Virus record (IMG/VR): IMGVR_UViG_3300015374_000004
Coordinates: 5,787 to 69,786 of that record
Length of the DNA: 64,000 nucleotides
Direction: 5' to 3' (one strand)
From: a virus
The number at the start of each line of letters is the position of its first letter. Position 1 is the first letter of the stretch. This document shows positions 11,458-47,702 of this stretch, piece after piece. A program made the translations under genes and the position numbers. The notes under the pieces are model-generated. The model had not been told where the DNA came from. It ran no database searches and saw only the letters and a list, made by a program, of their open reading frames with translations.

Positions 11458-11528
11458 AGGGGTGGGCCGGACTCGAACCGGCGTAGTCCGCTTTGCAGGC
11501 GGACGTCTAGCCACTCGACCACCACCCC
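11458..11528 (-). tRNA. tRNA-Cys (anticodon GCA)
   Basis: Minus strand 5'-GGGGTGG..TCCGC-CTGCAAA-GCGGA..GCCGG-TTCGAGT-CCGGC-CCACCCC-T. 7-bp acceptor, anticodon loop CUGCAAA, T-loop TTCGAGT. 71 nt, no encoded CCA. Confidence 0.8.
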
Positions 11529-14390: not shown

Positions 14391-14920
14391 GGCATCACCC
14401 CGTAGGCGTGTAGGTAGTCGGACTGGATGCGCTCGGCGAACATCGTCCACTCGCCGACCTCGGCGGCGTGCCAGCCGCCGTTCATCGTGACGGACGCCTT
14501 GATGACGAGGCCCACCTTCTCCTCATGGTCGAGACGGAAGTCAGCGACCGGAGCGAACCGAGGCTCGTTCACGTCGCCCAACCTCGCCCAGATGAGCAGG
14601 CGGTTCTCGACCGCACGCACCTCGTCCAGGGCTTCCAGCAGCGCCTTGCTGCGCGCCCTGGGCGAGACGTACGGGATCAGGAGGGCGGCGGTGTCCCGCC
14701 AGCGGTGGAGTCGGAAGGCCATGGTGTAGCCCCCGAACTTGCGTTCGGTCACCTCGTCGTAGGAGGTGGGCTCACCCACCACGGCGACTCGGTAGGGCGT
14801 GCGGGTGGCGACGTCCAACTCCACGAAGTTCGGGAGGTAGGACCGCAACGTGCCTGTGTCACAGAGCCTCGTCACGGCCACCATCTCGTCCGCGTTGTCG
14901 TTGTGGTTCAGCCAGCGCAT
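14387..14920 (-). CDS. hypothetical protein embedded in the amidoligase cluster
   Basis: 177 aa, ATGA-coupled on both sides. No recognisable motif. Confidence 0.45.
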   Translation of the reverse strand: MRWLNHNDNADEMVAVTRLCDTGTLRSYLPNFVELDVATRTPYRVAVVGEPTSYDEVTERKFGGYTMAFRLHRWRDTAALLIPYVSPRARSKALLEALDEVRAVENRLLIWARLGDVNEPRFAPVADFRLDHEEKVGLVIKASVTMNGGWHAAEVGEWTMFAERIQSDYLHAYGVMP

Positions 14921-14921
14921 G

Positions 14922-16265: not shown

Positions 16266-16322
16266 GTGTTCTATGTGCCTCACTTTCTGCGGGATCCACC
16301 CGCGGTAGGACACGTGTCCGTG

Positions 16323-17258: not shown

Positions 17259-17305
17259 CGTTGTTTCACCTCCTCTCGACGGCCTAGTAGGGACAGGATC
17301 AGCGC

Positions 17306-17869
17306 CTACATGTAGGCGACGATGGCGGCGAAGTTGCCCGCAGCGACCAGTTCGTCTGCTCGCTGGGTGGCCAGGTGCAGGACGGCGAAGTTCGCCACGT
17401 CCAAGGCGTCGGTGCCCGCCAGGTTGGCGGCCCGATCACGGAGGTTGGCGACGAAGTCGCGTGCCCGCTGCTCGTCGGAGTCGTTGCACGACTCCTCGAA
17501 GATCTCGGTCACGACGGCGTTCGTCATCCAGCGGGTCAGGTCGGACCAGTTGTAGTTCCTGGTCGAATCCAGGATCTTCACGATGGTCAGATCGACCAGC
17601 CCTTCGCTGTGCTCGTAGCCAGGCGTCACGACCATGGAGACCATGAAGCCGTGCGACTCCCAGGTCGTGCCCAGGCGTGTCGCGTCGACGTAGCCAGCCA
17701 CGTCGCGGCCGCTGTTGGGATACAGCGACTCACGGCTCTGCCGTGTGCGCAGAGCGCTCGCGGTGGCCTTGACGGTCCAGCCGAACACGCTGTCGTGATC
17801 GAGGGTGGTGTTGTACCCCCAGGCGCACGAGCCGACCGTGACGGAGTCGTACTCGGTCAGATAGATCAT
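17306..17869 (-). CDS. hypothetical protein
   Basis: Conserved start motif GAGAGGAGGTGAGAACATATG. Confidence 0.45.
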   Translation of the reverse strand: MIYLTEYDSVTVGSCAWGYNTTLDHDSVFGWTVKATASALRTRQSRESLYPNSGRDVAGYVDATRLGTTWESHGFMVSMVVTPGYEHSEGLVDLTIVKILDSTRNYNWSDLTRWMTNAVVTEIFEESCNDSDEQRARDFVANLRDRAANLAGTDALDVANFAVLHLATQRADELVAAGNFAAIVAYM

Positions 17870-18128
17870 ATGTTCTCACCTCCTCTCTGGCGGGACGCAC
17901 GCAGAGAGCCCAGCCCCAGGAGTGCAAGGCTTTGACGGTCACACTCCTGCCGTGCCGTCCGGGTTGCGTGCGTCCCCCACAGGGGAGGTCAGACGAAGGG
18001 GTCTGCCTGCTCGTCGTCAGGCACTCGGATCCACACCTTCATGGTGTCGTCCGGGCGCGTCAGCGCGAGGTACAGGCAGAACCCGAGGGCCGCCAGCACA
18101 CACAGGCTGACGGCCACACCGAGCAGGT

Positions 18129-18494
18129 TCACCACGCCGTGGCGTCTGTGGCCACGATGTTGATCGCCTGAGCCCCCGCGGTGTTCTGCAGGGTGCCGAG
18201 GCGGAAGTTGTCCGTGCCGATGCCGGGCATGTTGCCCCGCCAGCAGTCGTCGACGGCGTTGGAGCCACCCATGAGCGGCCCACAGTTCTCGTGGACGAGG
18301 ATCAACTTCTGGCCCGGCAGACGGGTGCAGAGACCCGCGTTGTTGGTCAGGGCCACGATGGCCTTGCCATCCTGCGTCTGGCCACAGTAGGCCGGATCGT
18401 CGATCCGGGCATCCGGCTGAGGCGGCACGCAGGCTGCGACCACGGTGATCGCACTGCCGATGATGGCGGCGCGACCGAAGTTCTTGCGGTTCAT
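18129..18494 (-). CDS. secreted Cys-containing small protein
   Basis: Signal peptide 'MNRKNFGRAAIIGSAITVVAAC' and 6 Cys. Start motif GGGAGGTGAACATATG. Confidence 0.5.
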   Translation of the reverse strand: MNRKNFGRAAIIGSAITVVAACVPPQPDARIDDPAYCGQTQDGKAIVALTNNAGLCTRLPGQKLILVHENCGPLMGGSNAVDDCWRGNMPGIGTDNFRLGTLQNTAGAQAINIVATDATAW

Positions 18495-18647
18495 ATGTTC
18501 ACCTCCCTTCGAGGTGATGATGGGCGCGGATTGTGAAGGAAGATCCGCGCCGGGCGGAAAGACACGTGTTCGTAACGTGTCAGGTCAGGAGCCCCGCGAT
18601 GATCAGCACCAAGGCGAGGACGAAGTTGATCTTCGAGCCGGTGGGGA

Positions 18648-18848
18648 TCACGGCATGGCGCTCACGTAGAGCACCTGAGTCCTCTGGGCCTCGGCCGCCG
18701 CCCGGACCCCCCGGACGAAGGCGGTGCGCTGCACCGTCTCGTACGTGAACTCGGGCATCTGGAACGTGGTCACGTCCCCATCGGCCGTGATCGAGATCAC
18801 GGTCACCTGGGACTCGGACTCGACGATGATGATCGTCTTGATGAACAT
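18648..18848 (-). CDS. small hypothetical protein (66 aa)
   Basis: ATG 3 nt after GAGAGGAGGTGA. It is the C-terminal part of the longer track ORF 18648-19199, whose upstream part is Arg/Pro junk. Confidence 0.45.
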   Translation of the reverse strand: MFIKTIIIVESESQVTVISITADGDVTTFQMPEFTYETVQRTAFVRGVRAAAEAQRTQVLYVSAMP

Positions 18849-18898
18849 GTCACCTCCTCTCAGGAGAACGCACGGCCCCTCCAGGCCGCGCGTTCTGC

Positions 18899-19342
18899 TC
18901 AGAGCGGGCGGGGAACGTCGGACGGCCACGCCAGGTCGTTGCGCGCGGCGAACTCGCGCGCCCGGCGCAAGAACTCCGGCATGAACTGCTCGGGGCCATC
19001 GCCCTCGGCGAACGCTTCCTGGCCGGGGCCGTCGTGGCACGACTGGAACGCCGACAGGGTCTCGGCGTTGAGGCCGTCGAACAGGGCCTTGATGGCCACG
19101 TAGCGGTCGTCGTCGGCGGTCAGCAGCACGTAGATGCCGTGGCCCTCCAACTCGCCGGGTTCGTAGACATCGTCGGGGATCGAGTGGCCGATGGCGCACC
19201 GGACCTCGAAGAACGAACCGTCCTCGGCGTACTTCGCCGTGCGGTAGGCGCAGGTCACTCCGTCGTGGGCGTAGGTGCCCTGGGCGACGATCCCACGCAC
19301 TCCCGCGTCGAAGACGTCCTGGAGCGTGAGTGAGTTGCTCAT
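18899..19342 (-). CDS. hypothetical protein
   Basis: Start 'MSNSLTLQ' lies after GAGAGGAGGTGATTAC. Confidence 0.45.
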   Translation of the reverse strand: MSNSLTLQDVFDAGVRGIVAQGTYAHDGVTCAYRTAKYAEDGSFFEVRCAIGHSIPDDVYEPGELEGHGIYVLLTADDDRYVAIKALFDGLNAETLSAFQSCHDGPGQEAFAEGDGPEQFMPEFLRRAREFAARNDLAWPSDVPRPL

Positions 19343-19548
19343 GTAATCACCTCCTCTCTGCAGGGGGCTCAACCCGGAGGCGGGGCCGGGGAGCCCCCTG
19401 CAGGGGGGAGGGGACGTTTCTGCTCAGGAACGGCGCACACTCCGGCGCGACCGGCTAGTACGCCGTCCCGAGCAGATGTTTCACGTGAAACTCGCCAGTG
19501 CGAGCACGGCGGCGAGGCAGAGGCTCACGAGGAGCCAGGGGAACCGCG

Positions 19549-19728
19549 TCATGGCCAGTACCCCATATCGAGACGGTGGCGGGTGCCGGATGCGGCCACG
19601 TCGCAAGTCCTCGGCATGTTGCCCAGGTTCTCCTGCCAGGAGCAGCCACAGACGACGATGACGTCGCCGACCCTCGCGCCTGGATAGGCGGTGACGACGA
19701 CGGTGACCTTCGGCTCGTGCTCGTTCAT
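19549..19728 (-). CDS. small hypothetical protein (~59 aa, MNEHEPKVTVVV...)
   Basis: Not in the ORF track. ATG 6 nt after GAGAGGAGGTGA. Good GC3. Confidence 0.4.
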   Translation of the reverse strand: MNEHEPKVTVVVTAYPGARVGDVIVVCGCSWQENLGNMPRTCDVAASGTRHRLDMGYWP

Positions 19729-21885: not shown

Positions 21886-22024
21886 GCGCCCGGTCTGCCA
21901 TCGACCCGGTGGGTGCTCCGCACTAGGGCGAGAGGCTGCTGCCAAGAATGAATCGCTTGCCATAACCCCCATAAGCGACAGCGAAACCCGTTTCCGGGTA
22001 AGCAGCGGGTGTTATGCTTGCGTT

Positions 22025-23324: not shown

Positions 23325-23641
23325 GCCCCATCGACCTCGGCCCCGGCCAGTCCTACGCGCTGGTCATCACCCGCCGCCCTGACGGCACCATCGTCGAGAC
23401 CTGGTTCCCTGACGTCGTGCTCGTCGCCACTCCCATGGTGGTGCCTGGCGCGGTGTGGGAGGACATGGACGCCACCATCGTCGACCCCGACCGCATCGAC
23501 CACTGGTCGATCGACGGCATCGCCCGCTCTAACGGCAGCGGCTACGCCATGGCCCAGCGGATCCTCGACGCCGACGACCGGCGCACCCTGGCCACCCACG
23601 TCTCCCACTACCGCTCGCCCTTCTGGTCCAACAACCAGTAA
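23321..23641 (+). CDS. hypothetical protein
   Basis: GTGA-coupled to the upstream gene. Confidence 0.4.
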   Translation: MSPIDLGPGQSYALVITRRPDGTIVETWFPDVVLVATPMVVPGAVWEDMDATIVDPDRIDHWSIDGIARSNGSGYAMAQRILDADDRRTLATHVSHYRSPFWSNNQ

Positions 23642-23710
23642 GCAGCCAGGCGTATACTGCTCGTAGACCCCGGTAACGGTCCGCCAGTCCCCCCTTGGCG
23701 GTTCGGCCGG

Positions 23711-25515: not shown

Positions 25516-25560
25516 GTAGCCAGTATACGGCGGTGTGCTGACTGGGTGTATCCTGGAGAC
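25516..25560. promoter_or_regulatory. divergent promoter/switch region (TATACT -10 for the leaderless RHH gene and RBS for the + gene)
   Basis: 45-bp gap between divergent starts containing the CAGTATAC palindrome. Confidence 0.4.
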
Positions 25561-25922: not shown

Positions 25923-26135
25923 ATGGAGAACGAGACCATGAAGGCCGAGGCCGAGCCTCTCGACCTCAAGGAGGCCGCCCGGCGCGCCTCGGCGGCCGTT
26001 AAGGGCCTGAACGAGGTGGCGGGCGTGCGGCGCTCGAAGCACACCGGCTCGGTGGTCCCCCCGGACCTGCGCAAGCAGCGGAACCGAGCCAAGGCCAAGC
26101 GGGCCCGCGCCAGCCGGAAGATCAACCGTGGCTGA
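25923..26135 (+). CDS. small basic protein
   Basis: C-terminus 'RKQRNRAKAKRARASRKINRG'. Confidence 0.4.
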   Translation: MENETMKAEAEPLDLKEAARRASAAVKGLNEVAGVRRSKHTGSVVPPDLRKQRNRAKAKRARASRKINRG

Positions 26136-27093
26136 GGTCGTCTACCTCGGCAACTTCCAGCACGACCACTGCACCGAGGTCCACCTCGCCAGGGAGATGC
26201 AGGCCAACGGCCACCGGGTGAGCAAGGTCCAGGAGCCTCACGACGCCAACGAGCGGTTCGTGCGGCGCCTGGAGGCCAAGGTGTCGAACCTCAAGCCCGA
26301 CCTGTTCCTCTGGACGAGGACGTGGGGCCTGCCACCGATGGCGACCGACACGTGGCGACGGTTCGAGGAGAAGGGCATCACCACCGCCTCCTACCACCTC
26401 GACCTGTACCTGGGGCTCAAGCGGGCCGAGAAGATGCGCCGCGACCCGTTCTGGACGACCGGCTACGTCTTCACGCCGGACGGCAACGCCTCCAGCGAGC
26501 GCTACTTCCACTCCATGGGCATCAACCACTGGTTCATGCCGCCCGCGGTCGTCTCCGACGCCGTACATGAGGGCATCAGGATGCCTGAGTACGTCTCCCC
26601 GCTGGCCTTCGTCGGCTCGTGGAAGAACTACCACCCCGAGGAGTGGCCGTTCCGCCAGACGATGGTGCTGTGGCTCCAGAGGCGCTACCAGAGGGAGTTC
26701 GCCGCCTGGGGGGCCAACGGCCGGGGCACGATCCGTGAGGGCCACCTGAACGACCTGTACGCCTCGGTGAAGGTCGTGGTCGGCGACAACCTCTCCCTGC
26801 GGGGCAACACCCACTACATCTCCGACCGCTACTTCGAGACGCTGGGCCGCGGCGGCTTCCTGGTCGCCCCCTACGTCCAGATCCTCGACGAGTTGGGCTT
26901 CGTCCACGGCGAGAACATCTGGACGTATCGCTCGGCCGACCTGTCGGACCTGGAGTACCAGATCAAGGTCACCCTCGCCCTACCGCCCGAGCGGCGCAAG
27001 GAGATCGTCGCCAACGCCATGGCCTTGATCAAGGAGCGACACACGTACCGCCATCGCCTGCAGAAGGCGTTCGAGATCATGGGAGTGCAGTGA
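26128..27093 (+). CDS. glycosyltransferase (CgeB/DUF3880-like)
   Basis: 321 aa. The C-terminal 'YISDRYFETLGRGGFLVAPY' resembles the CgeB-type GT domain. First gene of the glycosylation cassette. Confidence 0.45.
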   Translation: MAEVVYLGNFQHDHCTEVHLAREMQANGHRVSKVQEPHDANERFVRRLEAKVSNLKPDLFLWTRTWGLPPMATDTWRRFEEKGITTASYHLDLYLGLKRAEKMRRDPFWTTGYVFTPDGNASSERYFHSMGINHWFMPPAVVSDAVHEGIRMPEYVSPLAFVGSWKNYHPEEWPFRQTMVLWLQRRYQREFAAWGANGRGTIREGHLNDLYASVKVVVGDNLSLRGNTHYISDRYFETLGRGGFLVAPYVQILDELGFVHGENIWTYRSADLSDLEYQIKVTLALPPERRKEIVANAMALIKERHTYRHRLQKAFEIMGVQ

Positions 27094-27605
27094 AACTCAT
27101 CATCGGCGCAGGACAGGAGAGGATGGAGGGCTGGACGACGGTCGACATCGACCCCGCCAACGAACCTGACATCGTGGCCAGCGCAGACGACCTGAACATG
27201 ATCCCCGACTGGACCGTCGAGGAGATCCGCGCCGTCGACATCCTGGAGCACATGCCCTACCGCACGGTGGGCAAGACGCTGGGCGAGTGGCGCCGAGTGT
27301 TGAAGCCCGGCGCGCTGGCCTTCATCCAAGTCCCGGACGCCGGGACGGTGATGCACTGGTGGGTGAGCCGTGACCCGAGGCTCCTGCAGCGGATCCCCGA
27401 GGAGATGGAGCGGACGTTCATGAACGGGGTCAACTGGCGGCTGATGGGCGGCCAGGACGACGCCTACGGCGACTGGACGTACAACGTCCACTACACGCTG
27501 TTCTCGGCGGCCAGCCTGACCAAGGCCGTGGCCGACGCAGGCTTCCGGCTCCGGGAGATCAACACCGACACCCACCCCAACCTGTACTGCTGGGTGAGCG
27601 CGTGA
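27090..27605 (+). CDS. SAM-dependent methyltransferase
   Basis: 'KLIIGAGQERMEGWTTVDIDP', glycine-rich motif I. Confidence 0.5.
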   Translation: MKLIIGAGQERMEGWTTVDIDPANEPDIVASADDLNMIPDWTVEEIRAVDILEHMPYRTVGKTLGEWRRVLKPGALAFIQVPDAGTVMHWWVSRDPRLLQRIPEEMERTFMNGVNWRLMGGQDDAYGDWTYNVHYTLFSAASLTKAVADAGFRLREINTDTHPNLYCWVSA

Positions 27606-28279
27606 TCACGATCATCTCTCCCCACCTCGACGACGCCGTGCTGTCGCTGGGTGACTTCCTGGCGCGCAACGAGGTGCCGGTCTCGGTTGTCACCGTGCTC
27701 GCTGGCATCCCCGGCTTCCTGCCGCTCACCAAGTACGACTTCGACTGCGGCTTCTCGTCAGGAGCCGAGGCGATGGGACGCAGGCGGGTCGAGGACAAGG
27801 ACGCTCTGGCCTTCCTCCGCTGTGAAGCCCACCACCTCGACTTCCTGGACATGCAGTACGGCATCGAGCAGAACCCGGAGCAGATCAAGGCCGCGCTCAA
27901 GCCGCACCTCGACATGGCCTTCGGTCCGGTGTACGTCCCGCTCGGCCTCGTCCACCCGGACCACGAACTGGTCGCCCGCTGTGCGATGGAGATGCTCCTC
28001 CCCCAGGAGGGCAGGGAGATCTTCGTCTACGAGGACGCACCGTCGCGGGTGCTGTACCCCGAGTCGGTCAGGGAGGCGATCCTGCTTCTCGGCGGTCGGG
28101 GCTGGGTAGTGAGTGACGCGATCTACGTCCCGCAGGAACTAGACCTGATGCGGCGGAAGATGCAAGCCATCCATCACTACCGCTCCCAACTATGGTCCCT
28201 CGATCTCGCATCGTCCCTAGCCCCGGAGAGGATCCACCCAGTGGTCCCCTCCCGCGTCTTGGAGGAGATCCCGTCATGA
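27602..28279 (+). CDS. LmbE/PIG-L family N-acetylglucosaminyl deacetylase
   Basis: 'IISPHLDDAVLSLG' (PIG-L 'HPDDE') and 'HPDHE' motifs. Confidence 0.6.
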   Translation: MITIISPHLDDAVLSLGDFLARNEVPVSVVTVLAGIPGFLPLTKYDFDCGFSSGAEAMGRRRVEDKDALAFLRCEAHHLDFLDMQYGIEQNPEQIKAALKPHLDMAFGPVYVPLGLVHPDHELVARCAMEMLLPQEGREIFVYEDAPSRVLYPESVREAILLLGGRGWVVSDAIYVPQELDLMRRKMQAIHHYRSQLWSLDLASSLAPERIHPVVPSRVLEEIPS

Positions 28280-28788
28280 GGCTGAACTTGGGTTGCGGCC
28301 TCGACGTCCGTGAGGGCTGGGTCAACATCGACTGCGAGCCCTCGGGCAACGGTGCGGTCGTCCTGATGGACGTCGTCAAGGAGGGGATCCTCTACGACAG
28401 CGGCTCGGTCGACTTCATCTTCATGGGGCACATGCTTCACATGGTCGAGCCCGACTCCGTGCCAAAGTTGCTCGGGGAGTGCCATCGAGTCCTCCGTCCC
28501 GGTGGCGCTCTCCGCATCGTCGAGATGGACTTCGAGAAGGCGATCGTCAACTGGCAGAAGGGGAACGACGAGTGGTTCCCGGTCGCTGACGAGATCGAGC
28601 GGACTCTCGACGGCAAGTTGCTGCGCTACCTCACCTGGCACGGCACGCGCCGGTCGCTGTACACGCCCCTCTACCTGTTCTCGCTGTTCACGGACACGGA
28701 CTTCGAGCACTTCGGCCTCGGCCGGTACGGCGACTGCGAGTTGGACGCCAGAGAGTCGGAGTCCGTCGTCTTCGAGGCCATCAAGTGA
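28276..28788 (+). CDS. SAM-dependent methyltransferase (Methyltransf_11-like)
   Basis: 'LNLGCGLDVREGW', 'LRPGGALRIVE'. Confidence 0.55.
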   Translation: MRLNLGCGLDVREGWVNIDCEPSGNGAVVLMDVVKEGILYDSGSVDFIFMGHMLHMVEPDSVPKLLGECHRVLRPGGALRIVEMDFEKAIVNWQKGNDEWFPVADEIERTLDGKLLRYLTWHGTRRSLYTPLYLFSLFTDTDFEHFGLGRYGDCELDARESESVVFEAIK

Positions 28789-29771
28789 CACGGCTGGCGT
28801 TGATCGCCAGGGCAGACAACGGCGGGCTCGGCAACCAGACGTGGGAGATGGCGAACCACCTCAAGCCGGAGAAGGTGCTCGTCGTCCACTCCCGGCACAT
28901 CACGAGGGGTCACGCCGACGTCTCTCGGTACGTCGACTCCGAGGCCGAGGTGCGCATCACCCCGAGAGGGCCGACAGACGCCGAAGCGCGCTGGCTCTGC
29001 TACGGGATCGACAAGATCCTGACCGCGGAGACGTTCTACGGCACAGCGATCCCCACCGCAGCGCGCAGACGGGGCGTGCTGACCATCAACCACTGCAACC
29101 CGGAGATGTTCAGGGCCACCGACACGGCCGACGTGAACCTGGCGCCCACCGACTGGCGCATGGACAGGCTGCCGAAGGGCACCCGAGTCGTCCCGATGCC
29201 GGTGGTGATGGCGTCGGACGAAGGCTGGGACGGCCACAGGACCATCTGCCACGTCCACTCGGACGCCATGTGGGACCGCAACGGGACCGGCGACCTGCTC
29301 GATGCGCTCCAGTACCTCCACGAGTCGACCTTGGTGACGATCCTGGGCGGCAAGGCGGGCTACGAGGAGATCGGCAAGGCCACCGTCATCTGGCTCGGCC
29401 CCATCCAGGACTCCTACAAGATCGCATGGAAGCAGATGAGGGGGATCTTCGTGCTGCCTCGGCGCTTCGGAGGGCTCTGTCTGCCCATCCAGGAGGCCGC
29501 AGCGCGCTCCAGACCCATCATCACGACCAACGTGGGGCCTCAGAACAAGTGGCAGGGCGCCGCGCTGGTCCCTGCGAGCGTCAGGAGCATCGAAACGATG
29601 CCCGGAGGCCGATTCGAGGTCTACCAGTGCTCTCCGAGGGGTCTTGCGCACGAAATCGAGCGCGTTCTGACCATTCACGGCCCTCTGCTGGCGAAACGGG
29701 CCTCCGAATGGGCCTCAGAGCGGTCTTGGGAGGCTCTGGGGCCTCTCTGGACCTCGATCTGCCGTGATTAG
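28785..29771 (+). CDS. glycosyltransferase family 4 (GT-B)
   Basis: The E-X7-E region 'RRFGGLCLPIQEAAARSRPIITT'. Confidence 0.55.
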   Translation: MTRLALIARADNGGLGNQTWEMANHLKPEKVLVVHSRHITRGHADVSRYVDSEAEVRITPRGPTDAEARWLCYGIDKILTAETFYGTAIPTAARRRGVLTINHCNPEMFRATDTADVNLAPTDWRMDRLPKGTRVVPMPVVMASDEGWDGHRTICHVHSDAMWDRNGTGDLLDALQYLHESTLVTILGGKAGYEEIGKATVIWLGPIQDSYKIAWKQMRGIFVLPRRFGGLCLPIQEAAARSRPIITTNVGPQNKWQGAALVPASVRSIETMPGGRFEVYQCSPRGLAHEIERVLTIHGPLLAKRASEWASERSWEALGPLWTSICRD

Positions 29772-30471
29772 CCTCCTGGTGCCCTTCCGGCCCGGAGATC
29801 CGGTCCGAGACCGCCTCTGGAGGCACGTGAAGGGCCTCTGGAGGGCCGCAGCGCCCGATTGGGAGTTGATCTGGGCCTCAGACGACCCAGATGGCCCCTG
29901 GCGCAAGGGTGTGGCCGTCCAGAGGGCTCTGAGCGCCTCCACAGGCGAGATCGTGGCCGTCATCGACGCCGATACGTGGATTCCGGGCGTGTTCGAGGCC
30001 GTGGAGCGCGTCCAGAGCGGCCAGACGTGGGTCAGGAGCCACCATCAGGTGCTCAGACTGACCCAGGAAGCCACCGAGAAGGTGCTCCTGGGAGCCCATA
30101 TCAGCCTCGTCGGGGGGTACCCGGAGAACCTCGTGGACCCTCCGTACACCCAAACGGCGGCCGGAGCGGGCACTGTGTGCCTCAGATCGGTCATCGAGGA
30201 CATTCCCATCGACTGCCGTTTCGCTGGCTGGGGAGGGGAGGATTCGGCCTGGGCGGACGCTCTGACGACCTTCTACGGCCCCGCGAGCCGTGTGAACGAC
30301 TTCTGCTACCACCTGTGGCACCCTCCGGCGCCCAGAATCGGCCCCAAGATCGGTTCAGACCTCTCGAACCAACTCCGCATCCGCTACAAGCAGGCGTTTC
30401 GCAACAGAGAGGCCACAAGGGTCCACGTCGAGGCCGGGAGGTATCACTCCCGGCACTTCGACGTCGTCTGA
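29764..30471 (+). CDS. glycosyltransferase family 2
   Basis: 'ISLLVPFR' and a DxD motif 'VIDADTW'. Confidence 0.55.
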   Translation: MISLLVPFRPGDPVRDRLWRHVKGLWRAAAPDWELIWASDDPDGPWRKGVAVQRALSASTGEIVAVIDADTWIPGVFEAVERVQSGQTWVRSHHQVLRLTQEATEKVLLGAHISLVGGYPENLVDPPYTQTAAGAGTVCLRSVIEDIPIDCRFAGWGGEDSAWADALTTFYGPASRVNDFCYHLWHPPAPRIGPKIGSDLSNQLRIRYKQAFRNREATRVHVEAGRYHSRHFDVV

Positions 30472-30475
30472 GGTA

Positions 30476-30760
30476 CTACCGCAGGTTGCGGAAGGGATCG
30501 GCGCCCAGATCGGGCATCGGACCGGTCCCGTTGGCCATCTTCGGTATCACCAGGCCGCCCCGGCGCCTCTGCAGCGCCTCGTAGAGCCACTGCTCCACGT
30601 TCTCCTCGAAGAAGTAGTGGGACTCCTGGGACTGGGTGTTGAAGATCAACACCCAGCGCTCCGTGCCGTCAGGGAGGGTTGCGGTGGCCTCCCTGACGGT
30701 GAACGGCACTGGTGCCGGTTGGACGATGGGGACGTTGTCCCCCGGCAACTGTGTGGTCAT
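30476..30760 (-). CDS. hypothetical protein
   Basis: 94 aa with coding bias. Confidence 0.4.
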   Translation of the reverse strand: MTTQLPGDNVPIVQPAPVPFTVREATATLPDGTERWVLIFNTQSQESHYFFEENVEQWLYEALQRRRGGLVIPKMANGTGPMPDLGADPFRNLR

Positions 30761-31440
30761 GCCAGCCGACGCCTGGTGGCGTAGACGAGCAGCCCACCGA
30801 GGGCCAGGGCCACCAGGGCAACCGGCGCAGCGTTGGAGCCCTTCCCGGTCGCGGGCAGCGTGGCCGGGGAGACCGTGGCCGATGCGGCCGTGGTCGGGGT
30901 GGTGGCCACCGTGGTCTGCCCAGGGACCGTGGTCGCGGGGACCGTGGTCGTCGGCGTGGTGGTGGTGGAGACGACCTGCGAGGCGCAGACGTACGGGCCA
31001 CCGACTCGGCCGTTGGCCTGACCGTTGCCAGTGAAGACGGCCTTGATGTCGATCTGGCCGCAGCCGACCGTGAAGGTCAGCGTGACCGGGCCGACCGAGT
31101 TGGCCGGGAAGGTGCCGGACACGTCTGAGTCCACCGCGCCGCCCGCACCCGAGGTGCCCTCATGGGCGACCACTCGGATCGGGAACGGCTGGGGCACCGG
31201 CTTGTCCAGGGTGTAGGTGACCGTGGAGCCCTTGCCGTCCGCGGGGACGTTGAGCACGATGGTCACGGTCCGCTGCAGCGTCCCGAAGGTGAACGTCTTC
31301 GAGTTGGTGCAGGTCACCGGGGCCTGCTGGATCTTCTGGTTCCCCCCGCAGAGCGGGAAGGACTGGGCTTGGGCGTGACCGGCTACTGCCGCCCCCCCGA
31401 AGGAGAGGACGGCAGCGACGGCCACGAGGGTCTTCCTCAT
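30757..31440 (-). CDS. LPXTG cell-wall-anchored surface protein with a Thr/Pro-rich stalk
   Basis: N-terminal signal peptide. C-terminal 'LPATG' + hydrophobic segment + 'RRRLA'. Confidence 0.65.
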   Translation of the reverse strand: MRKTLVAVAAVLSFGGAAVAGHAQAQSFPLCGGNQKIQQAPVTCTNSKTFTFGTLQRTVTIVLNVPADGKGSTVTYTLDKPVPQPFPIRVVAHEGTSGAGGAVDSDVSGTFPANSVGPVTLTFTVGCGQIDIKAVFTGNGQANGRVGGPYVCASQVVSTTTTPTTTVPATTVPGQTTVATTPTTAASATVSPATLPATGKGSNAAPVALVALALGGLLVYATRRRLA

Positions 31441-31442
31441 GG

Positions 31443-32453
31443 TTAGCCTCCTGCTACGGCTGCGGCGGCGGCGTCAGCCGTGCCGGTCGTGTTGACGATG
31501 ATGGGTGACTTCCCATCGGTGATGATCACCTTGACTCCGGGGGCGATCTTGTCGATGTAGTGCGACGTGATCAGTTCCGGCGTCAAGGACTGTGCCACAA
31601 GGTTGTTCGCTGCGGCCTCCGCTTCGGCCGCGATCTTCACGGACTCGGCGGAACCCTTGGCGGTCTCGATGGCCTGGTTGGCCTGAGCGGTGGCTGTGGC
31701 GACCTGAGCCTGGGCCTCCTGGGCCTTCTGCTTGGCAGCCTGCTTGTCCTCGATGGACTGCTTGTACTGCTTCGAGAAGTCCAGGTTGTCGATCAGCAGG
31801 TCGTTGACCGTGATCGAGTACTTGCGCAGATCCTCCGCGAGCCGAGCCTTGACGGCCTTGCGGATGTCCTCTCGGTGCGGAGCGATCTGGTCAGCCGTGT
31901 AGGGGACCGTCTCCTCCTTGAAGAAGTTGTGGACCCTCGCGGGCACCAGCACCTCGAACCAGTTCTTGCCGACGTTCTTGAACAAGTCCTGGACCTTGTT
32001 CTTGTCCAAGGAGTAGTTCAGGGTGACGTCGAAGAACACGTCCTGGGTCTCTGACGAGAAGGCCACGATCTCCTGGCCCTGGCCCTTGTCCTTCTGGAAC
32101 CGGTACTTCTGCACCTTGATCGACTGCTTCGACAGCGACTCCCAGGGCGGCAAGATCTGCACGCCAGGGTCACGTTGGCCGACGATCTTCCCGAACCGGT
32201 AGACGACCCCGACTTCACCGGAGCCGACCGTATGGAACGAGAAGAAGGCCGTGACCAGCAGCCACAGGAAGAAGCCTGCGCCGAAGACGGCCATCCCGCG
32301 AGCAGGGGTGCCCTCGTACTTGTAGACGGGCTCCCCCCTCTGTCGGGTCTCGTAGTCGTCTTCGACCTTGCTGCTGGCTGCCAGGGCTCCCACAGCGGAG
32401 AGCCCCAGCAGGAGCAGGGATACGAGGATCCAGCCGATCATCACGCAGCCCAC
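31443..32453 (-). CDS. SPFH/Band-7 (stomatin/prohibitin-like) membrane protein
   Basis: N-terminal TMs. 'GEVGVVYRFGKIVGQRDPGVQILPPW' SPFH core and a coiled-coil C-terminus. Confidence 0.65.
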   Translation of the reverse strand: MGCVMIGWILVSLLLLGLSAVGALAASSKVEDDYETRQRGEPVYKYEGTPARGMAVFGAGFFLWLLVTAFFSFHTVGSGEVGVVYRFGKIVGQRDPGVQILPPWESLSKQSIKVQKYRFQKDKGQGQEIVAFSSETQDVFFDVTLNYSLDKNKVQDLFKNVGKNWFEVLVPARVHNFFKEETVPYTADQIAPHREDIRKAVKARLAEDLRKYSITVNDLLIDNLDFSKQYKQSIEDKQAAKQKAQEAQAQVATATAQANQAIETAKGSAESVKIAAEAEAAANNLVAQSLTPELITSHYIDKIAPGVKVIITDGKSPIIVNTTGTADAAAAAVAGG

Positions 32454-33262
32454 CAGTTCGGCAGGCGGTGGCCCCCACGGCCGGAGTTGATGACGTCGAC
32501 CGCAGCCGCAGCCACCGACTGAGCCTTGGGCCGACCGGTCGCCCGGCGGATGCCCTCAGCCCGCTGGAGCAGGCCCCGAGCGCCTCCACGAGCACTGCCC
32601 AACTTGCGGGCAGCCTCCTCGTCGACGAGAGCGTCGCCGTAGCGGTTCATCAGGAGGCCGAAGCCAGCCACGATGTTGCCAGCGGGCTCCTTGCCGTAGG
32701 CGAGGTTGATGAACTTGAGGACTCGGTCGAGCCCCTCGGAGCCGTTCTCGTCCCAGATGCGACGGAGGGCTGCGAGGCAGCGGATGTGGGTGATGTCCGT
32801 GGCTTCATCCCCGTTGGAGCCGGTCGAGCCAGCGACGGGGACGGCGTAGCCGTTCTCGAAGCAGATCCGAGCGATCTCGTTCTCGGGCACCCGTCCGGCC
32901 TGGACGGCGACCTTGAACTTGTCGTTGGGGGAGACGTTCAGGCGGTCGTTGCGCCGCAGGAACATCTCAGCCTCCTCCTGCTCGGAGAGGCCCTCACGGA
33001 CTTCGCACTCGATCATCTGATCGTTCCAGCCCATGGCGCGCAGTGCGGCGACACGGTGCTGGCCGTCGATGACGTAGTACCAGCCGTCCCGGAAGGACAT
33101 GACGGGGTAGCCGAGTTCGTCCGGGTCGAACTCACTGGCGAGGTAATCCACGAAGTGGCTTCGCAGATCCCGCTGGGTGAGGGGAGAGACTCGGATCCGC
33201 TCGATGGGCACCCAACGGATGTCCCCCGTTCGGACGAGCCGCTCACGTGTTTGCGTGGGCAA
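32441..33262 (-). CDS. ParB-like nuclease domain protein
   Basis: 'YYVIDGQHRVAALRAMG' is the ParB/Srx N-terminal motif. Confidence 0.55.
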   Translation of the reverse strand: MPTQTRERLVRTGDIRWVPIERIRVSPLTQRDLRSHFVDYLASEFDPDELGYPVMSFRDGWYYVIDGQHRVAALRAMGWNDQMIECEVREGLSEQEEAEMFLRRNDRLNVSPNDKFKVAVQAGRVPENEIARICFENGYAVPVAGSTGSNGDEATDITHIRCLAALRRIWDENGSEGLDRVLKFINLAYGKEPAGNIVAGFGLLMNRYGDALVDEEAARKLGSARGGARGLLQRAEGIRRATGRPKAQSVAAAAVDVINSGRGGHRLPNWWAA

Positions 33263-33941
33263 GGTTCATCTCCTTGATGAAGCGGGTGATCACCCGCATG
33301 TGGGTTCGGGCGACGGACGAGAACTCGGCCGCCACTTCTGGGCTCACGTCTTCGGGGTTGGCGATGGCGAGCCCGGCCACCACCCCGTCCAAGTGGCCGA
33401 GCATCTCGACCACGACCTTGTCGGACTGCGGATTGCGAGCCCGATCGTTCTTGCCGAGGATCTCGTCATGCACGGAGTTCATGCCGCACATGCCCCGTTC
33501 GAGGCAGACCAGCAACGCGTGATCGAACTCCTCCTGGGTGGCTCGGGCGAAGGCCAGCGAGGCGCTCCTCGCGTCACTGGCAGGCAGGATGTCCTTGAAC
33601 GACGGGATGCCCCTCATCGACTTGTCGGACTGGCCTCTGATTCTGAGGACGCCCTTCTCCTGCATGGCGAAGACCCGCTGGCCGATGGCCCGCTCCAGAC
33701 GCCGGGTGGCTTCCATGACCACCAGGCACTCGTCGGAGTAGGCGTCCCCACCTTGCGTGTGGCGGAAGTGGAAGACGATGGCGGCCCCGGCATCACGCTG
33801 AGCGATCAGGTACTCGATCTGCTGGATGTGGCCGGTGAGCGTTGTCATGGAGATCATCTCGCGGGCCGCTCTGGTGGCCTGCTGGGCGACTTCCCCGAGG
33901 GGGAGGTTGCGCATTCCGTTGGAGACGCTGACGAGGTTCAT
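33243..33941 (-). CDS. hypothetical protein (between ParB-like and MTase; possible nuclease partner)
   Basis: ATGA-coupled to the MTase stop. The N-terminal 190 aa of the listed ORF is Arg/Pro junk. Confidence 0.4.
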   Translation of the reverse strand: MNLVSVSNGMRNLPLGEVAQQATRAAREMISMTTLTGHIQQIEYLIAQRDAGAAIVFHFRHTQGGDAYSDECLVVMEATRRLERAIGQRVFAMQEKGVLRIRGQSDKSMRGIPSFKDILPASDARSASLAFARATQEEFDHALLVCLERGMCGMNSVHDEILGKNDRARNPQSDKVVVEMLGHLDGVVAGLAIANPEDVSPEVAAEFSSVARTHMRVITRFIKEMNLAHANT

Positions 33942-34648
33942 GGGAGCCTCATGTGGATGATCCACTCCGAGGAGGGGCGAGCCTCCCGGTTGGCGCCGTC
34001 CTTGTAGCGCTTGGTCTTGACGGGGACGCCGTCGACCATCACCCAGCCACGCTGGCCGAAGTTGGCCACCCACCAGGAGACGACCGGGTGCTCGATGCCG
34101 TCGTGAAACAGGTTCGAGACGTTCAGCGCCAGGTTGGCGGGGCGCAGCATCACCCTTGTCACCGCGATGGCGACGTCGGAGTGGATGCGCTTGTACTCGG
34201 GGCTCCAGAAGTAGTGCCCTGCCCCGTTTCCCGGCGTGACCGGACGGTTGAGGCTGAGGGCGTAGCCCCTGCGTCTGGGGTGCTTCCCTGTGGCGGCACG
34301 CTCGGCCTGTTCGGCCTGCGTGCCCAGGTAGTTGTCGGCGAATCGGTTGCCGTAGTCGGGGCTGGTGACGATGGCGTGAGGACGGGGCAAGAACGAGCGC
34401 CCGCCGTTCACTGAGACGTTCTCCGGGTTGAGCGGGGCCACAGTAAGAGTGGTGGAATCCCCCCAGGCGGTGCGCTCGTGCATCTTCGCCCAGGGCTCCT
34501 CGATCTCGATGCCCCACGTGTCGTCGCGTCCCATCTCGTGGATCAGCCCCGTACCGGCGTAGGGATCCAGGATCGGCCCCTCCCAGTCCTTTGTCAGGGC
34601 TGAGAGTTGGGCCAGGATCTCCTTCGAGAACGGTGCGGGATGGCTCAT
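33938..34648 (-). CDS. DNA methyltransferase (N6-adenine or N4-cytosine type)
   Basis: Motif I 'ILDPYAGTG' and motif IV 'VTSPDYG'. Leaderless-type start 7 nt after TATACT. Confidence 0.6.
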   Translation of the reverse strand: MSHPAPFSKEILAQLSALTKDWEGPILDPYAGTGLIHEMGRDDTWGIEIEEPWAKMHERTAWGDSTTLTVAPLNPENVSVNGGRSFLPRPHAIVTSPDYGNRFADNYLGTQAEQAERAATGKHPRRRGYALSLNRPVTPGNGAGHYFWSPEYKRIHSDVAIAVTRVMLRPANLALNVSNLFHDGIEHPVVSWWVANFGQRGWVMVDGVPVKTKRYKDGANREARPSSEWIIHMRLP

Positions 34649-34693
34649 GGGAAACAGTATACGGTCAACTGCTTACCGACGAACCATGCGAAC

Positions 34694-34867
34694 TCAGTCT
34701 TCGTAGACGTGATGGACCTTCACAGAGCACTCCGGGAAGAACTCGTTCATCTCCTTGAGGTAGCGAGTGAGTTCTTCGGACTGCCCTGGATCGAACACAC
34801 GTTCGACGGTGTCAGTCGTGCCCGGCATACGCACGGTCACTTCCCACCGGATCAGGTTCTTGATCAT
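34694..34867 (-). CDS. small hypothetical protein
   Basis: RBS GGGAGGAGC before 'MIKNLIRWEV'. Confidence 0.4.
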   Translation of the reverse strand: MIKNLIRWEVTVRMPGTTDTVERVFDPGQSEELTRYLKEMNEFFPECSVKVHHVYED

Positions 34868-35048
34868 TGTGCTCCTCCCACCACACGCAGCGGAGCCGCT
34901 CGCCATCGCGAACGACAGTCACCCGCTGGCCGTGTGGCTTGTGAACACAGCGGATGAGGAAGGTGGCTCCGGGCTTGGTCTGCGGCCGCAGCCGGACCAG
35001 TAGCCCGCAGCAAGGGATACGTGAGTTCAGGACTTGAAGCCTGGGCAT
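34812..35048 (-). CDS. small hypothetical protein
   Basis: RBS AAGGAGC before the ATG. The 3' end overlaps the downstream gene. Confidence 0.35.
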   Translation of the reverse strand: MPRLQVLNSRIPCCGLLVRLRPQTKPGATFLIRCVHKPHGQRVTVVRDGERLRCVWWEEHNDQEPDPVGSDRAYAGHD

Positions 35049-35347
35049 CGGTGCTCCTTGAAGAAGGGGAGGTTGGACACGTCAGGACGTTCGTCCTCAC
35101 GCAGTGGATAGGCGATGTGGCCAGCGAAGAAGAAGTCCCCGCCGACGACAGCATCCGGCTCGAAGGACATCTCCTGCCCAAGGGCGACGATGTCCACGCC
35201 GGAACCGGAGAGATACGCCTTGCGGACCAACTGGCCGCACTGCTTGCACTTCTCCGGCTGGGGCTCGGTGTTCTTCTCCTTGCTGGCGTGGCGGACCTTG
35301 TCCTCGGCGGCCCAGTCTGTCCCGAAGGAGGGCTCGACCCAGGTCAT
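35027..35347 (-). CDS. hypothetical protein with a CxxC motif
   Basis: 'EKCKQCGQLV'. Confidence 0.35.
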   Translation of the reverse strand: MTWVEPSFGTDWAAEDKVRHASKEKNTEPQPEKCKQCGQLVRKAYLSGSGVDIVALGQEMSFEPDAVVGGDFFFAGHIAYPLREDERPDVSNLPFFKEHRCPGFKS

Positions 35348-35706
35348 TCGTTCACCGCGTCGATGTAGGCCCGAGCCAGCGAGGTGGTGGCCGAGGGCAC
35401 CCACGCTCCGTGGGCAGCCGAGACCTTCTGCACGAGATCCTGGAAGGTGCCGTGACCAGCCTCGACCTGGCGCTCGGTGGACACGATGGTCAGTTCGCAG
35501 AAGGCCGTGAGGGCGCAGAGCGCGCCGTAGGTGGCGGCCCGCTGCTCGACGTTGTCGGAGCAGCCCTGCGCGACCAGTTCGGCGATCCGGGCCAGGTAGT
35601 GGTCCGTGAAGGAGATCGCCATGTCCTTGACGCGAGCGTGGGGGGTCATCACCTCCTCGGCGGTGTCACCGGAGGCCACTTTCAAGACCCAGCCGTCGTC
35701 ATTCAT
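35344..35706 (-). CDS. hypothetical protein
   Basis: 120 aa, coupled starts. Confidence 0.4.
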   Translation of the reverse strand: MNDDGWVLKVASGDTAEEVMTPHARVKDMAISFTDHYLARIAELVAQGCSDNVEQRAATYGALCALTAFCELTIVSTERQVEAGHGTFQDLVQKVSAAHGAWVPSATTSLARAYIDAVNE

Positions 35707-35848
35707 GGGGTACGTCCTTGTTGATGATGGCCGACAGCAGGAGCCGCCGGACGGTGGATGAGATGCCTTCCCCCGGCCTGGCCTGAGCGATGATCTGCTC
35801 CTTGAGCCAGCCGGGGATCTTGACGTTGAGGTGGTACTCGTCTTCCAT
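35699..35848 (-). CDS. ribbon-helix-helix protein
   Basis: 'HLNVKIPGWLKEQIIAQARPGEGISSTVRRLL'. Confidence 0.45.
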   Translation of the reverse strand: MEDEYHLNVKIPGWLKEQIIAQARPGEGISSTVRRLLLSAIINKDVPHE

Positions 35849-36165
35849 CAGATCCTCGACAGCATGAGCCCGACTTCGCGAGCCCACTCAGAGTGGTTGT
35901 GGGCGAAGACGTGGTGGCGATCGCAGAGGCAGCGGAGGTTGGCGGGCTCGTTGGCGCCCCGGACCCGGCGACCCTTGGCATGGTGGACGACGAGGTGCCC
36001 GGCGCACAGCCAGACGTTGGGGATCTCGGGCGGCTCGGCCTTGCGGTCGGCGTAGCGGCCGAACTCACACCCGCGCTCAAGGATCTGAGGGGTGACGGCG
36101 TCGAGTTCCTTCTGGAAGTTCCGTAGCCGCTGGCTCGGGCCTCGCTTGATCTGGGTCCGTTTCAT
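35848..36165 (-). CDS. HNH endonuclease
   Basis: 'CEFGRY...NVWLCAGHLVVHH...NLRCLCDRHH'. Confidence 0.55.
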   Translation of the reverse strand: MKRTQIKRGPSQRLRNFQKELDAVTPQILERGCEFGRYADRKAEPPEIPNVWLCAGHLVVHHAKGRRVRGANEPANLRCLCDRHHVFAHNHSEWAREVGLMLSRI

Positions 36166-36332
36166 TTGCCCTCCGCGAATCGCTGAACGGCAGGTCGTTC
36201 GAGTAGCCACCGGATACCGTCAGCGTTCGACTGCGGTGTCTCGGTGTCGGCCTCCAGCCGATCCAGCACCGCCTGCAGGGTGTCCATCTGAGTGTCGGTG
36301 ATCCTGATGCACAGGTGGTGTGGGTAACGCAT
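36162..36332 (-). CDS. ribbon-helix-helix protein, leaderless start
   Basis: 'CIRITDTQMDTLQAVLDRLE'. TATACT lies 6 nt upstream of the ATG. Confidence 0.45.
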   Translation of the reverse strand: MRYPHHLCIRITDTQMDTLQAVLDRLEADTETPQSNADGIRWLLERPAVQRFAEGK

Positions 36333-36495
36333 GGAGACAGTATACGTCAGGACGCTCAACGGGGGAGGAAGCGGCCGGGTGTACCATGCCCCGGAACGCG
36401 AAGAACCCCCGGCTTCCGCTCCGGGGGTTCTTCCTACGACCTGATGAGGAGGTCCATGTGAAGACTACCAGCGACCGCTCACCGGGGGGACCGAA

Positions 36496-47685: not shown

Positions 47686-47702
47686 ACGCGTATACTCCCG
47701 CC

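Follow-up and report, generated by a model that had tools for sequence, protein, structure and literature searches.

A probable conserved leftward operon with a three-gene insertion in a phage of likely Acidimicrobiales hosts

The block of minus-strand genes studied here occupies positions 30476–36359 of a 64 000-nucleotide (nt) stretch, called the window, of the IMG/VR virus record IMGVR_UViG_3300015374_000004. From its gene content and from comparison with five related phage contigs, we consider it probable that the block is a conserved, non-structural leftward operon of a phage of about 72 kb with a probable Acidimicrobiales host, and that it has received a three-gene insertion. It reads as an operon of the phage backbone with two promoters, in which only three of the thirteen genes are variable cargo. 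An earlier note on this DNA had described the block as an accessory island of host-interaction and defence genes. Surface, membrane, ParB and methyltransferase genes on the opposite strand do give it the look of a defence island, but this look is misleading: what is found here is, for the most part, conserved phage backbone.

In kind, this is ordinary phage mosaicism. The elements of note are a host-derived sortase substrate fixed in a phage lineage and a newly recognised partner of the DUF6551 proteins. A phage group whose hosts are probably soil Acidimicrobiales is described here for the first time at the level of genes; the collections searched contain no cultured phage–host system for these bacteria. 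It provides a conserved partner for the widespread and uncharacterised DUF6551 ParB-like proteins of mycobacteriophages. The sortase substrate, kept by the whole phage lineage, is a candidate for a new route of surface remodelling.

General features of the block

All credible open reading frames (ORFs) between 30476 and 36359 lie on the minus strand and form an unbroken run. The source annotation and our own reading agree on thirteen genes, and each of these has a coding-type third-position GC content (GC3, 0.70–0.91) like that of the remainder of the window. Most adjacent genes overlap by 1–56 nt, and no terminators were found inside the block. Its GC content (0.64–0.67) is indistinguishable from that of the rest of the genome. 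On the left, the block converges on a plus-strand glycosylation operon that ends at 30471 and encodes a PIG-L deacetylase, two methyltransferases and glycosyltransferases. On the right, it diverges from plus-strand replication genes, which begin at 36496 with a helix–turn–helix (HTH) protein and continue with a DnaB-like helicase at 37157; the portal gene follows at 39368. The earlier description of a 5.9-kb minus-strand block between rightward operons was correct, as the block is contiguous and has plus-strand flanks on each side. Five genes were missing from the earlier list (35344–35706, 35027–35347, 34812–35048, 34694–34867 and 30476–30760). The genes and the two putative promoters are listed in table 1.

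Table 1. Features of the block in the direction of transcription, all on the minus strand. Protein lengths are in amino acids (aa).
36339–36358, minus: putative promoter P1; box TGAGCG (36358–36353), 8-nt spacer, TATACT (36344–36339), ATG 36332 6 nt on; leaderless
36162–36332, minus: first gene, small ribbon–helix–helix (RHH)-like protein; 56 aa from ATG 36332 (65 aa from TTG 36359); GC3 0.74
35848–36165, minus: putative HNH-type endonuclease; 105 aa; start overlaps the stop of the preceding gene
35699–35848, minus: small RHH-like protein; 49 aa (62 aa from GTG 35887); fold unproven
35344–35706, minus: protein specific to this phage; 120 aa; GC3 0.88; without family match
35027–35347, minus: conserved small protein; 106 aa; CxxC...HxC residues
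34812–35048, minus: small protein; 78 aa; homologue in L004/L005 37% identical; in the source annotation
34694–34867, minus: small protein; 57 aa; start position uncertain
34656–34675, minus: putative promoter P2; box TAAGCA (34675–34670), 8-nt spacer, TATACT (34661–34656), methyltransferase ATG 34648 7 nt on
33938–34648, minus: predicted orphan DNA amino-methyltransferase; 236 aa; motifs I and IV, profile matches to solved enzymes
33243–33941, minus: predicted all-helical partner of DUF6551 ParB-like proteins; 232 aa; insertion gene
32441–33262, minus: ParB/sulfiredoxin-fold DUF6551 protein; 273 aa; IDGQHR motif; insertion gene
31443–32453, minus: SPFH/Band-7 membrane protein; 336 aa; PF01145; insertion gene
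30757–31440, minus: LPXTG sortase substrate; 227 aa; PF00746 and TIGR01167
30476–30760, minus: last gene; 94 aa; GC3 0.89; 36% identical homologue in L100

Conservation in related phages

The methyltransferase and LPXTG proteins were used in exact and homology look-ups to recover relatives, whose layouts were compared by tblastn. Five related phage contigs were obtained, all metagenomic: L004 (70.6 kb), L097 (23 kb), L098/L099, L100/L101 and L108. Their portal, capsid and DnaB proteins, where present, are 44–55% identical. In all five, the block has kept its orientation and its place between the replication genes and the glycosylation operon. The shared layout consists of the replication genes running one way, with the portal gene beyond them, and, divergently, a small first protein, the HNH gene, small genes, among them that of the 106-aa protein, the methyltransferase and the LPXTG-family gene. 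A variable tail comes after the latter, followed by convergent glycosyltransferase genes. The LPXTG-family gene stands straight after the methyltransferase in every relative, and the methyltransferase stop overlaps or closely precedes the LPXTG start. Because the same layout, position and orientation recur in the five relatives, we read the block as backbone and not as an island.

The genes for the 232-aa, ParB-like and SPFH proteins (33941–31443) were not detected by tblastn in any of the five relatives, and this stretch is for that reason regarded as variable cargo. The earlier note had suggested looking for variability of the block among related phages; it was found in this sub-stretch, and each of the five carries the block as such. 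Overlaps of 4–20 nt join the inserted genes to their neighbours, and the GC3 values of the former are 0.84–0.91. Neither a promoter motif nor a terminator was found at the edges of the insertion, P2 being located upstream of the conserved methyltransferase, and neither the block nor the inserted genes show a compositional shift relative to the genome. The three genes thus appear to have arrived as an insertion within the operon and not as a moron. Morons are independent transcription units added to phage genomes (PMC3594210); the three-gene stretch resembles them in being carried by one phage and missing from its relatives, but it has no promoter or terminator of its own, shows no shift in composition, and its genes are coupled to their neighbours.

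The variable tail includes a small lipoprotein in L004 and a lipoprotein metallophosphoesterase in L100 and L108; RtcB is encoded further along in L100. The far end of the operon may be an envelope-protein slot, which fits a host-surface role. Of the host-interaction cargo proposed earlier, the envelope slot and the three variable genes can be retained; the block as a whole is backbone. Cargo variability is also seen in L100 (5973–8486), where the slot after the LPXTG gene contains the lipoprotein metallophosphoesterase, a homologue of the 94-aa gene and an RtcB RNA ligase. In L004 (5539–6799), the DnaB homologue is split over two frames and the source annotation called an opposite-strand ORF instead; this is probably an indel error, as the contig name suggests a long-read assembly.

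Promoters and the divergent intergenic region

The hexamer TATACT occurs seven times in the window, where 0.82 occurrences are expected, and none of 100 shuffles reached seven. At five sites, it is preceded by T[ACG]AGC[AG] and an 8-nt spacer, and a gene-opening ATG lies 6–7 nt on in four of these five cases. The same motif stands ahead of other transcription units (11439, 21999, 23639, 25541 and 47691). The pattern of the whole family is ggT[ACG]AGC[AG], an 8-nt spacer, then TATACT, TATGCT or TAGTCT, with an ATG 4–7 nt beyond most sites. Its members in the window are 11420–11439, 21999–22024, 23639–23658, 25522–25541, 34656–34675 (P2), 36339–36358 (P1), 36456–36481 and 47691–47696. As the motif serves units across the whole genome, the TATACT type appears to be the general promoter type of the phage and not the mark of an island. 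The leaderless TATACT starts attributed earlier to the block are real (P1 and P2), but they are of a type used genome-wide and not the block's own. The upstream box may be the site of a regulator, since it is far too close to the hexamer for a −35 element.

In the relatives, leaderless TATACT or TGTACACT promoters are present at the equivalents of P1 and P2. The place of P1 is taken by a TATACT or TACACT promoter, and the equivalent of P2 in L004, L098 and L108 lies ahead of the methyltransferase or of the gene preceding it. These promoters have TGTATACT or TGTACACT, and the upstream box is missing.

A perfect 13-bp stem with an 8-nt loop (36400–36433; GAAGAACCCCCGG / CCGGGGGTTCTTC) is located where the block and the replication genes diverge. 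Its position is kept in four relatives (L004 7705–7738, L097 7264–7289, L100 2607–2640 and L101 2391–2424). The CCCCCG/CGGGGG core is constant, and changes in one side of the outer stem are accompanied by changes in the other, which points to a structural element of RNA or DNA. A plain terminator was rejected, as no gene converges on the hairpin. The minus strand has an additional box-type promoter (36451–36481; TGAGCG followed by TAGTCT) across from the region where the replication gene at 36496 starts; after this promoter comes an ORF of seven codons (MDLLIRS) that runs into the hairpin. It could give rise to a short antisense or leader transcript controlling the replication operon.

These observations bear on the proposal that the whole block is a horizontally acquired and dispensable accessory island (moron) carrying host-interaction and anti-phage defence cargo, which we consider distinctly unlikely. 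The block does lie on the opposite strand between rightward operons; however, the position and order of its core are kept across the cluster of five relatives, which largely refutes an island as far as the core is concerned. It does have promoters, but they are of the genome-wide type, and the composition is that of the rest of the genome. Three genes are indeed missing from the relatives, but no terminator bounds them, and there is none elsewhere inside the block. The surface, membrane, orphan methyltransferase and ParB-like proteins would suit such an island; yet comparison with PADLOC-DB v2 gave no matches for the ParB-like, 232-aa, LPXTG and small proteins, and only weak generic matches for the methyltransferase and the HNH protein. 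A match of the SPFH protein to JetA (E 0.0077) was discarded as spurious. The defence cargo proposed earlier thus found no counterpart in this database for the SPFH, ParB-like or 232-aa protein. As no described PADLOC system was matched, the block was rejected as a defence system.

The DNA methyltransferase and palindrome avoidance

The 236-aa methyltransferase itself has no Pfam match even at E up to 10, including PF01555, a family that is carried by four of its distant homologues. In an alignment of 22 sequences of its family, motif I (LDPYAGxG, preceded by HPAxF) has invariant residues D28, P29 and G32, with A31 and G34 at least 90% conserved. In motif IV (TSPDYGNR), S96, Y99, G100, N101 and R102 are invariant, and conservation reaches at least 90% at T95 and P97. 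Among solved structures, the family profile matches DNA N4/N6 methyltransferases (2zie, E 5.6e-8; 8s9n, E 1.7e-6; also DpnA and CcrM). Motif I aligns with the C-terminal part of the solved enzymes and motif IV with their N-terminal SPPY, from which the order of the motifs is permuted relative to the beta-class. Although there is no Pfam match, the profile matches and the two motifs bear out the DNA methyltransferase label given earlier.

The protein is 49–53% identical in the five relatives, and its family is found on at least 83 viral contigs. None of the 80 viral loci that were fetched has ParB-like, 232-aa, SPFH or LPXTG genes near the methyltransferase, and a DnaB-like gene is nearby in 13 of them. 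No restriction endonuclease partner is adjacent to the gene here or accompanies it in the 80 viral loci. The 105-aa HNH gene lies 1.2 kb upstream, with four to five genes between. As the 80 loci lack partner genes and 13 have a DnaB-like gene, the protein is predicted to be an orphan, replication-associated phage enzyme. It is comparable to known orphan phage N4/N6 methyltransferases (N6_N4_Mtase; TTHA0409 2zie, 8s9n, DpnA, CcrM) in its motif I DPYAGxG and motif IV SPDY, in the lack of a restriction nuclease partner and in belonging to a family frequent beside phage replication genes. It differs from them in having motif I before motif IV and in falling below every Pfam threshold.

Palindromes were counted in the whole genome, that is the window together with positions 11500–19725 of L105, the contig from which the window derives (table 2). 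Some are avoided to an extreme degree, which points to strong restriction pressure on the phage; TCGA and ACGT are slightly over-represented in the genome. Such pressure fits a methyltransferase that would protect the phage DNA.

Table 2. Avoided palindromes in the whole genome.
AGCT: 1 observed, 211 expected
GCCGGC: 0 observed, 66 expected
CTCGAG: 1 observed, 48 expected
CCCGGG: 1 observed, 43 expected
AGGCCT: 0 observed, 31 expected
TCCGGA: 0 observed, 24 expected
ATCGAT: 0 observed, 20 expected

The LPXTG protein and the glycosylation operon

Two anchor models recognise the LPXTG protein above their cut-offs: PF00746 with 22.1 bits (cut-off 20) and TIGR01167 with 18.6 bits (cut-off 15.9). 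The C-terminus is composed of LPATG, 21 mainly hydrophobic residues and RRRLA. The N-terminus, MRKTLVAVAAVLSFGGAAVAGHAQA, was read directly as a secretion signal; it is low-confidence and non-globular in the structural model. This model has an Ig-like beta-sandwich at about residues 30–152 (predicted local distance difference test, pLDDT, mostly >90), followed by a disordered Thr/Pro-rich linker, LPATG, a membrane helix and a basic tail. All five relatives retain the signal peptide and the full sorting signal. The earlier label of a sortase-anchored LPATG protein is supported by the two models, the signal peptide and the conserved sorting signal.

Homologues about 50% identical are encoded in chromosomes of uncultured Acidimicrobiales. 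One of them is located between L25 / Pth / adenylate-kinase-like genes and Mfd / MazG, a housekeeping context; one 4.7-Mb Acidimicrobiales genome has three copies. No other phage genes were found at the chromosomal loci. The existence of these chromosomal homologues leads us to regard the phage gene as a probable captured host surface-protein gene, and Acidimicrobiales as likely hosts. The chromosomal homologues carry LP[ATV]TG signals, which implies that the host would have a sortase.

A further copy, 51% identical, is present in L087, an otherwise unrelated phage with a different terminase and 25% capsid identity, and again converges on a homologous glycosylation operon. The six-gene glycosylation operon of the window (26011–30471) is shared with L087 (12610–17674) at 35–45% identity; the L004 equivalent is at 12226–19594.

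It has to be asked whether the LPXTG gene and the glycosylation operon are one unit, which displays a host-like and possibly glycosylated wall protein to remodel the surface. We hold this to be unlikely. In each of the six related phages, the LPXTG-family gene and a homologous glycosylation operon run towards each other, and L087 has the same arrangement despite its unrelated terminase and 25% capsid identity; but transcription of the two is convergent and not joint. The linker is Thr/Pro-rich, of the kind that is O-glycosylated in actinobacteria. The glycosylation enzymes, however, have no export signals and resemble cytoplasmic mycobacteriophage virion-glycosylation sets, the anchor-less homologue in L109 is beside a different operon, and the chromosomal homologues are not adjacent to glycosyltransferases.

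Other envelope proteins through which phages alter the surface of an infected cell are Llp of T5 and, in Staphylococcus aureus, the LPXTG protein SasX encoded by a prophage. A third is the lipoprotein Ltp of TP-J34, a phage of Streptococcus thermophilus (PMC3952083). Like these three, the LPXTG protein has a phage gene and, as read from the sequence, would be exported and attached to the host envelope; relatives of the window phage carry lipoproteins in the LPXTG slot. Unlike them, it is an Ig-like sortase substrate of probable host origin, carried by an actinobacterial phage in which no integrase was found, and it shares neither sequence nor a specific fold with the three proteins; it is conserved across the phage group and not sporadic, and an exclusion role is here putative.

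A role of the LPXTG protein in surface remodelling (exclusion, receptor masking) is plausible. Lysogenic conversion by this protein, as proposed in the earlier note, is unsupported, since no integrase was found. A more far-reaching view is that Acidimicrobiales phages captured a host sortase-anchored Ig-like protein, fixed it and display it to mask the receptor or exclude competitors; we offer it as speculation of low probability. It would include that the gene is always beside a glycosylation operon and always co-transcribed with the orphan methyltransferase and that the protein is perhaps glycosylated, a combination that is just as doubtful. We know of no described case of an apparently non-temperate phage with a conserved exclusion or decoy mechanism that depends on sortase.

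The inserted cassette

The ParB-like protein matches PF20188 (DUF6551) with 52.9 bits (cut-off 26.8, E 4.8e-14) and phrog_1033; it has an IDGQHR motif and weak matches to sulfiredoxin and SbnI. The earlier ParB-like label is borne out by the above-threshold DUF6551 match and the DGQHR-type motif. Partition of the ParABS type was not recovered: no ParA-type protein was found in any genome scan, and the protein belongs to DUF6551 and is not a canonical ParB. It is 34–40% identical to early-operon proteins of mycobacteriophages and a Gordonia phage.

For the 232-aa protein encoded immediately upstream, a word-indexed search returned only the protein itself and an exhaustive search nine weak matches, and the DUF3102 protein encoded nearby is not similar to it. 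The nine relatives were combined in a profile, which hhalign aligned to the product of the gene immediately upstream of the DUF6551 gene in cultured phages (table 3). In all three phages of table 3, the pair belongs to the early lytic operon, in which cro-type or antirepressor genes precede it and excise follows. In Whouxphf (gp46–gp47, cluster F1), prophiGD02-2 (gp11–gp12) and Kuwabara (gp54–gp55), a gene for a helical protein of 230–300 aa overlaps the DUF6551 gene, as it does here. These phages have an integrase and carry the pair downstream of cro or antirepressor genes and upstream of excise, whereas in the window phage, which has no detectable integrase, the pair lies between the methyltransferase and the surface-protein gene.

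Table 3. Alignment of the 232-aa family profile with proteins encoded upstream of DUF6551 genes.
Whouxphf gp46: hhalign 99.2%, E 8.6e-20
prophiGD02-2 gp11: hhalign 98.75%, E 1.5e-16
Kuwabara gp54: hhalign 98.7%, E 2.9e-16

We conclude that the 232-aa and DUF6551 proteins probably constitute a two-gene module. A structural model of the 232-aa protein consists of helices throughout (pLDDT 85), and no informative neighbour was obtained for it. In the alignment, two homologues have an inserted helix–turn–helix-like stretch, which hints at DNA binding by this family. According to a recent preprint, CTP or ATP is bound by DUF6551 fusions of the ParB-CTPase fold from phages, and fusions of this fold to N6/N4 methyltransferases are common in phages (bioRxiv 10.1101/2025.10.10.680097). 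The module would then be a nucleotide-gated DNA-binding pair acting early on phage DNA.

The earlier note had grouped the ParB-like protein, the 232-aa protein and the methyltransferase as a triad. We rejected this grouping: the relatives pass directly from the methyltransferase to the LPXTG gene, and the 80 viral loci are without the other two genes. Cooperation of the three as a modification, restriction-like or anti-restriction module is very improbable in our view, although the genes are adjacent and overlapping in this phage and the fold fusions cited above would give it a precedent. The methyltransferase occurs without the other two genes in the five relatives as well as in the 80 loci; conversely, Whouxphf, Kuwabara and prophiGD02-2 have the pair of 232-aa-type and ParB-like genes with no methyltransferase gene beside it. 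The adjacency seen here is best regarded as the product of the insertion.

The third inserted gene encodes a protein with N-terminal membrane segments, an SPFH domain and an Ala/Gln/Glu-rich helix. The SPFH label assigned earlier was well chosen: PF01145 is matched far above its cut-off (106.8 bits, cut-off 23.6, E 1.7e-30, profile positions 2–176 of 176). Relatives in cultured phages are mostly band-7-like membrane proteins of large Streptomyces phages and are 27–30% identical. Such proteins (Stigma gp133, Comrade gp132) share with the window protein the SPFH domain, N-terminal membrane anchoring and an actinophage origin, but the identity of 27–30% extends over about half of the protein, and the closest relative found for the window protein is on a bacterial chromosomal contig. 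A search of viral contigs gave no match, and that of metagenome contigs gave one short bacterial contig. The nearest non-self relative found (48% identical) is encoded on a bacterial contig beside rpsU (ribosomal protein S21) and a LuxR regulator, and because of this neighbourhood a bacterial origin of the SPFH gene is likely.

The HNH protein and other small proteins

The 105-aa HNH protein is 44–51% identical in the five relatives. Eight residues (H61, H62, N72, C79, C81, H84, H85 and H91) are invariant in five sequences. The protein has no Pfam match; its profile has a weak match to the HNH domain of IscB (E 0.0033), and weak ZorE and IscB HNH matches were obtained with the protein.

The first small protein (56 aa) is conserved in L004, L097, L100 and L108, and no homologue of the 49-aa protein was detected in the relatives. 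Both of these RHH-like proteins have a pattern resembling strand–helix–helix, but neither has a Pfam or PDB match. In hhalign comparisons with seven known RHH proteins, the strand and first helix are in register, but the probabilities are only 6.8% and 1.6%. Of the HNH nuclease flanked by two RHH proteins described earlier, the nuclease remains a candidate on the basis of the weak IscB profile match and the invariant residues, and the RHH labels find no backing in Pfam or PDB.

The 120-aa protein has neither a family match nor a tblastn match in the relatives. The 106-aa protein has homologues in L004, L097 and L100/L101 and is possibly a zinc ribbon, given its CxxC...HxC residues. Pfam searches at E up to 10 returned nothing meaningful for the small proteins of the block.

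Proposed functioning of the operon

We infer the transcription of the block, its timing and the biochemical roles of all its products as follows. Host RNA polymerase would start at two leaderless TATACT-type promoters. The P1 transcript would encode small, probably DNA-binding proteins, the HNH nuclease and further small proteins, and the P2 transcript the orphan DNA amino-methyltransferase, then the envelope-destined proteins. The methyltransferase would mark phage DNA against cutting by host restriction enzymes. The LPXTG protein, a putative copy of a host surface protein, would be exported, fixed to the wall by the host sortase and would alter the surface of the infected cell, for example by blocking other phages or re-adsorption of progeny. 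The 2.5-kb cassette between the methyltransferase and LPXTG genes would be read from the shared transcript; its helical and DUF6551 proteins would be a pair borrowed from early operons of temperate actinophages, and it would also bring in an SPFH membrane scaffold protein, whose closest relative is bacterial-type.

Several points weigh against this interpretation. The methyltransferase could have a regulatory role instead of a protective one. A generic sigma-70 scan found no sites and so does not capture the promoters of this phage, and the function and timing of P1 and P2 are predicted from sequence. Several phage homologues of the LPXTG protein (P0033, P0034 (L109 760–1377), P0035 and P0037) end in IPATK, IPATR or IPATE. 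They stop at the position of the sorting motif and have no Gly, membrane helix or basic tail, and are therefore likely to be secreted and not anchored; the anchor-less gene of L109 adjoins an amidotransferase operon instead of the glycosylation operon. The comparison covers six genomes, among which loss in the relatives and gain here are formally inseparable; gain is favoured, since the methyltransferase–LPXTG junction is intact in five lineages of differing divergence. The host assignment, which we consider likely, is based on one gene family and a WhiB-like gene.

We also considered the block as a region for immunity or maintenance in a temperate or plasmid-like prophage, with an RHH repressor acting at the divergent promoters and ParB serving in partition. 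The divergent intergenic region, with its conserved hairpin or palindrome and several promoters, the RHH-like first gene and the presence of a ParB-fold protein would fit such a region. However, the 72-kb genome yielded neither an integrase nor ParA nor a recognisable repressor, the RHH fold of the first protein is putative, the ParB-like gene is missing from all relatives and its homologues are located in early lytic operons of integrase-bearing phages and not in partition loci. This makes a prophage region very unlikely, and a temperate lifestyle was rejected in view of the genome scans, in which no integrase was found. The conserved leftward operon with an insertion remains the reading that we prefer.

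Phage genome and likely host

The window has the markers of a tailed phage: large terminase (5240–6757), portal, major capsid protein and tail proteins. It is a rotated slice of the self-closing 72 349-bp contig Ga0132258_10000254. The end and start of the window are 8226 bp apart on this contig (L105 11499 / 19726), with 0 mismatches, which gives a circular map of about 72.2 kb. Near-identity DNA searches with the block and with window positions 1–25000 against cultured phages gave a sole match of 40 bp, in the ParB-like gene, and a portal-based search of viral contigs gave no match. Scans of the 72-kb genome and the precomputed annotations contain no integrase, no recombinase and no ParA. 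A gene for a WhiB-like transcription factor (3831–4499, plus strand) near the terminase indicates an actinobacterial host; the host is probably an uncultured Acidimicrobiales bacterium.

The genome layout is unusual: about 33 kb separate the large terminase gene (5240–6757) from the portal gene (39368), and this distance is occupied by genes for recombination, RNA-related functions, glycosylation and replication. The recombination pair at 7409–9170 (minus strand) is made up of an ERF-family recombinase and a RecE-like exonuclease. At 9534–11528 (minus strand), a tRNA-Cys (11457–11528) is directly upstream of a box/TATACT promoter and a 532-aa protein with a match to the Ro-like RNA-binding proteins of phages (phrog_850, E 1.5e-72). 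In bacteria, Ro proteins act with tRNA-like Y RNAs, and the pairing of the tRNA-Cys with the Ro-like protein may be functional.

Within the block, there is a direct repeat of 26 nt, 88% identical, at 33264–33289 and 34745–34770. The 232-aa protein has the encoded peptide TRFIKEMN at its end, and the 57-aa protein contains the similar TRYLKEMN; the repeat may be a recombination footprint or a chance motif.

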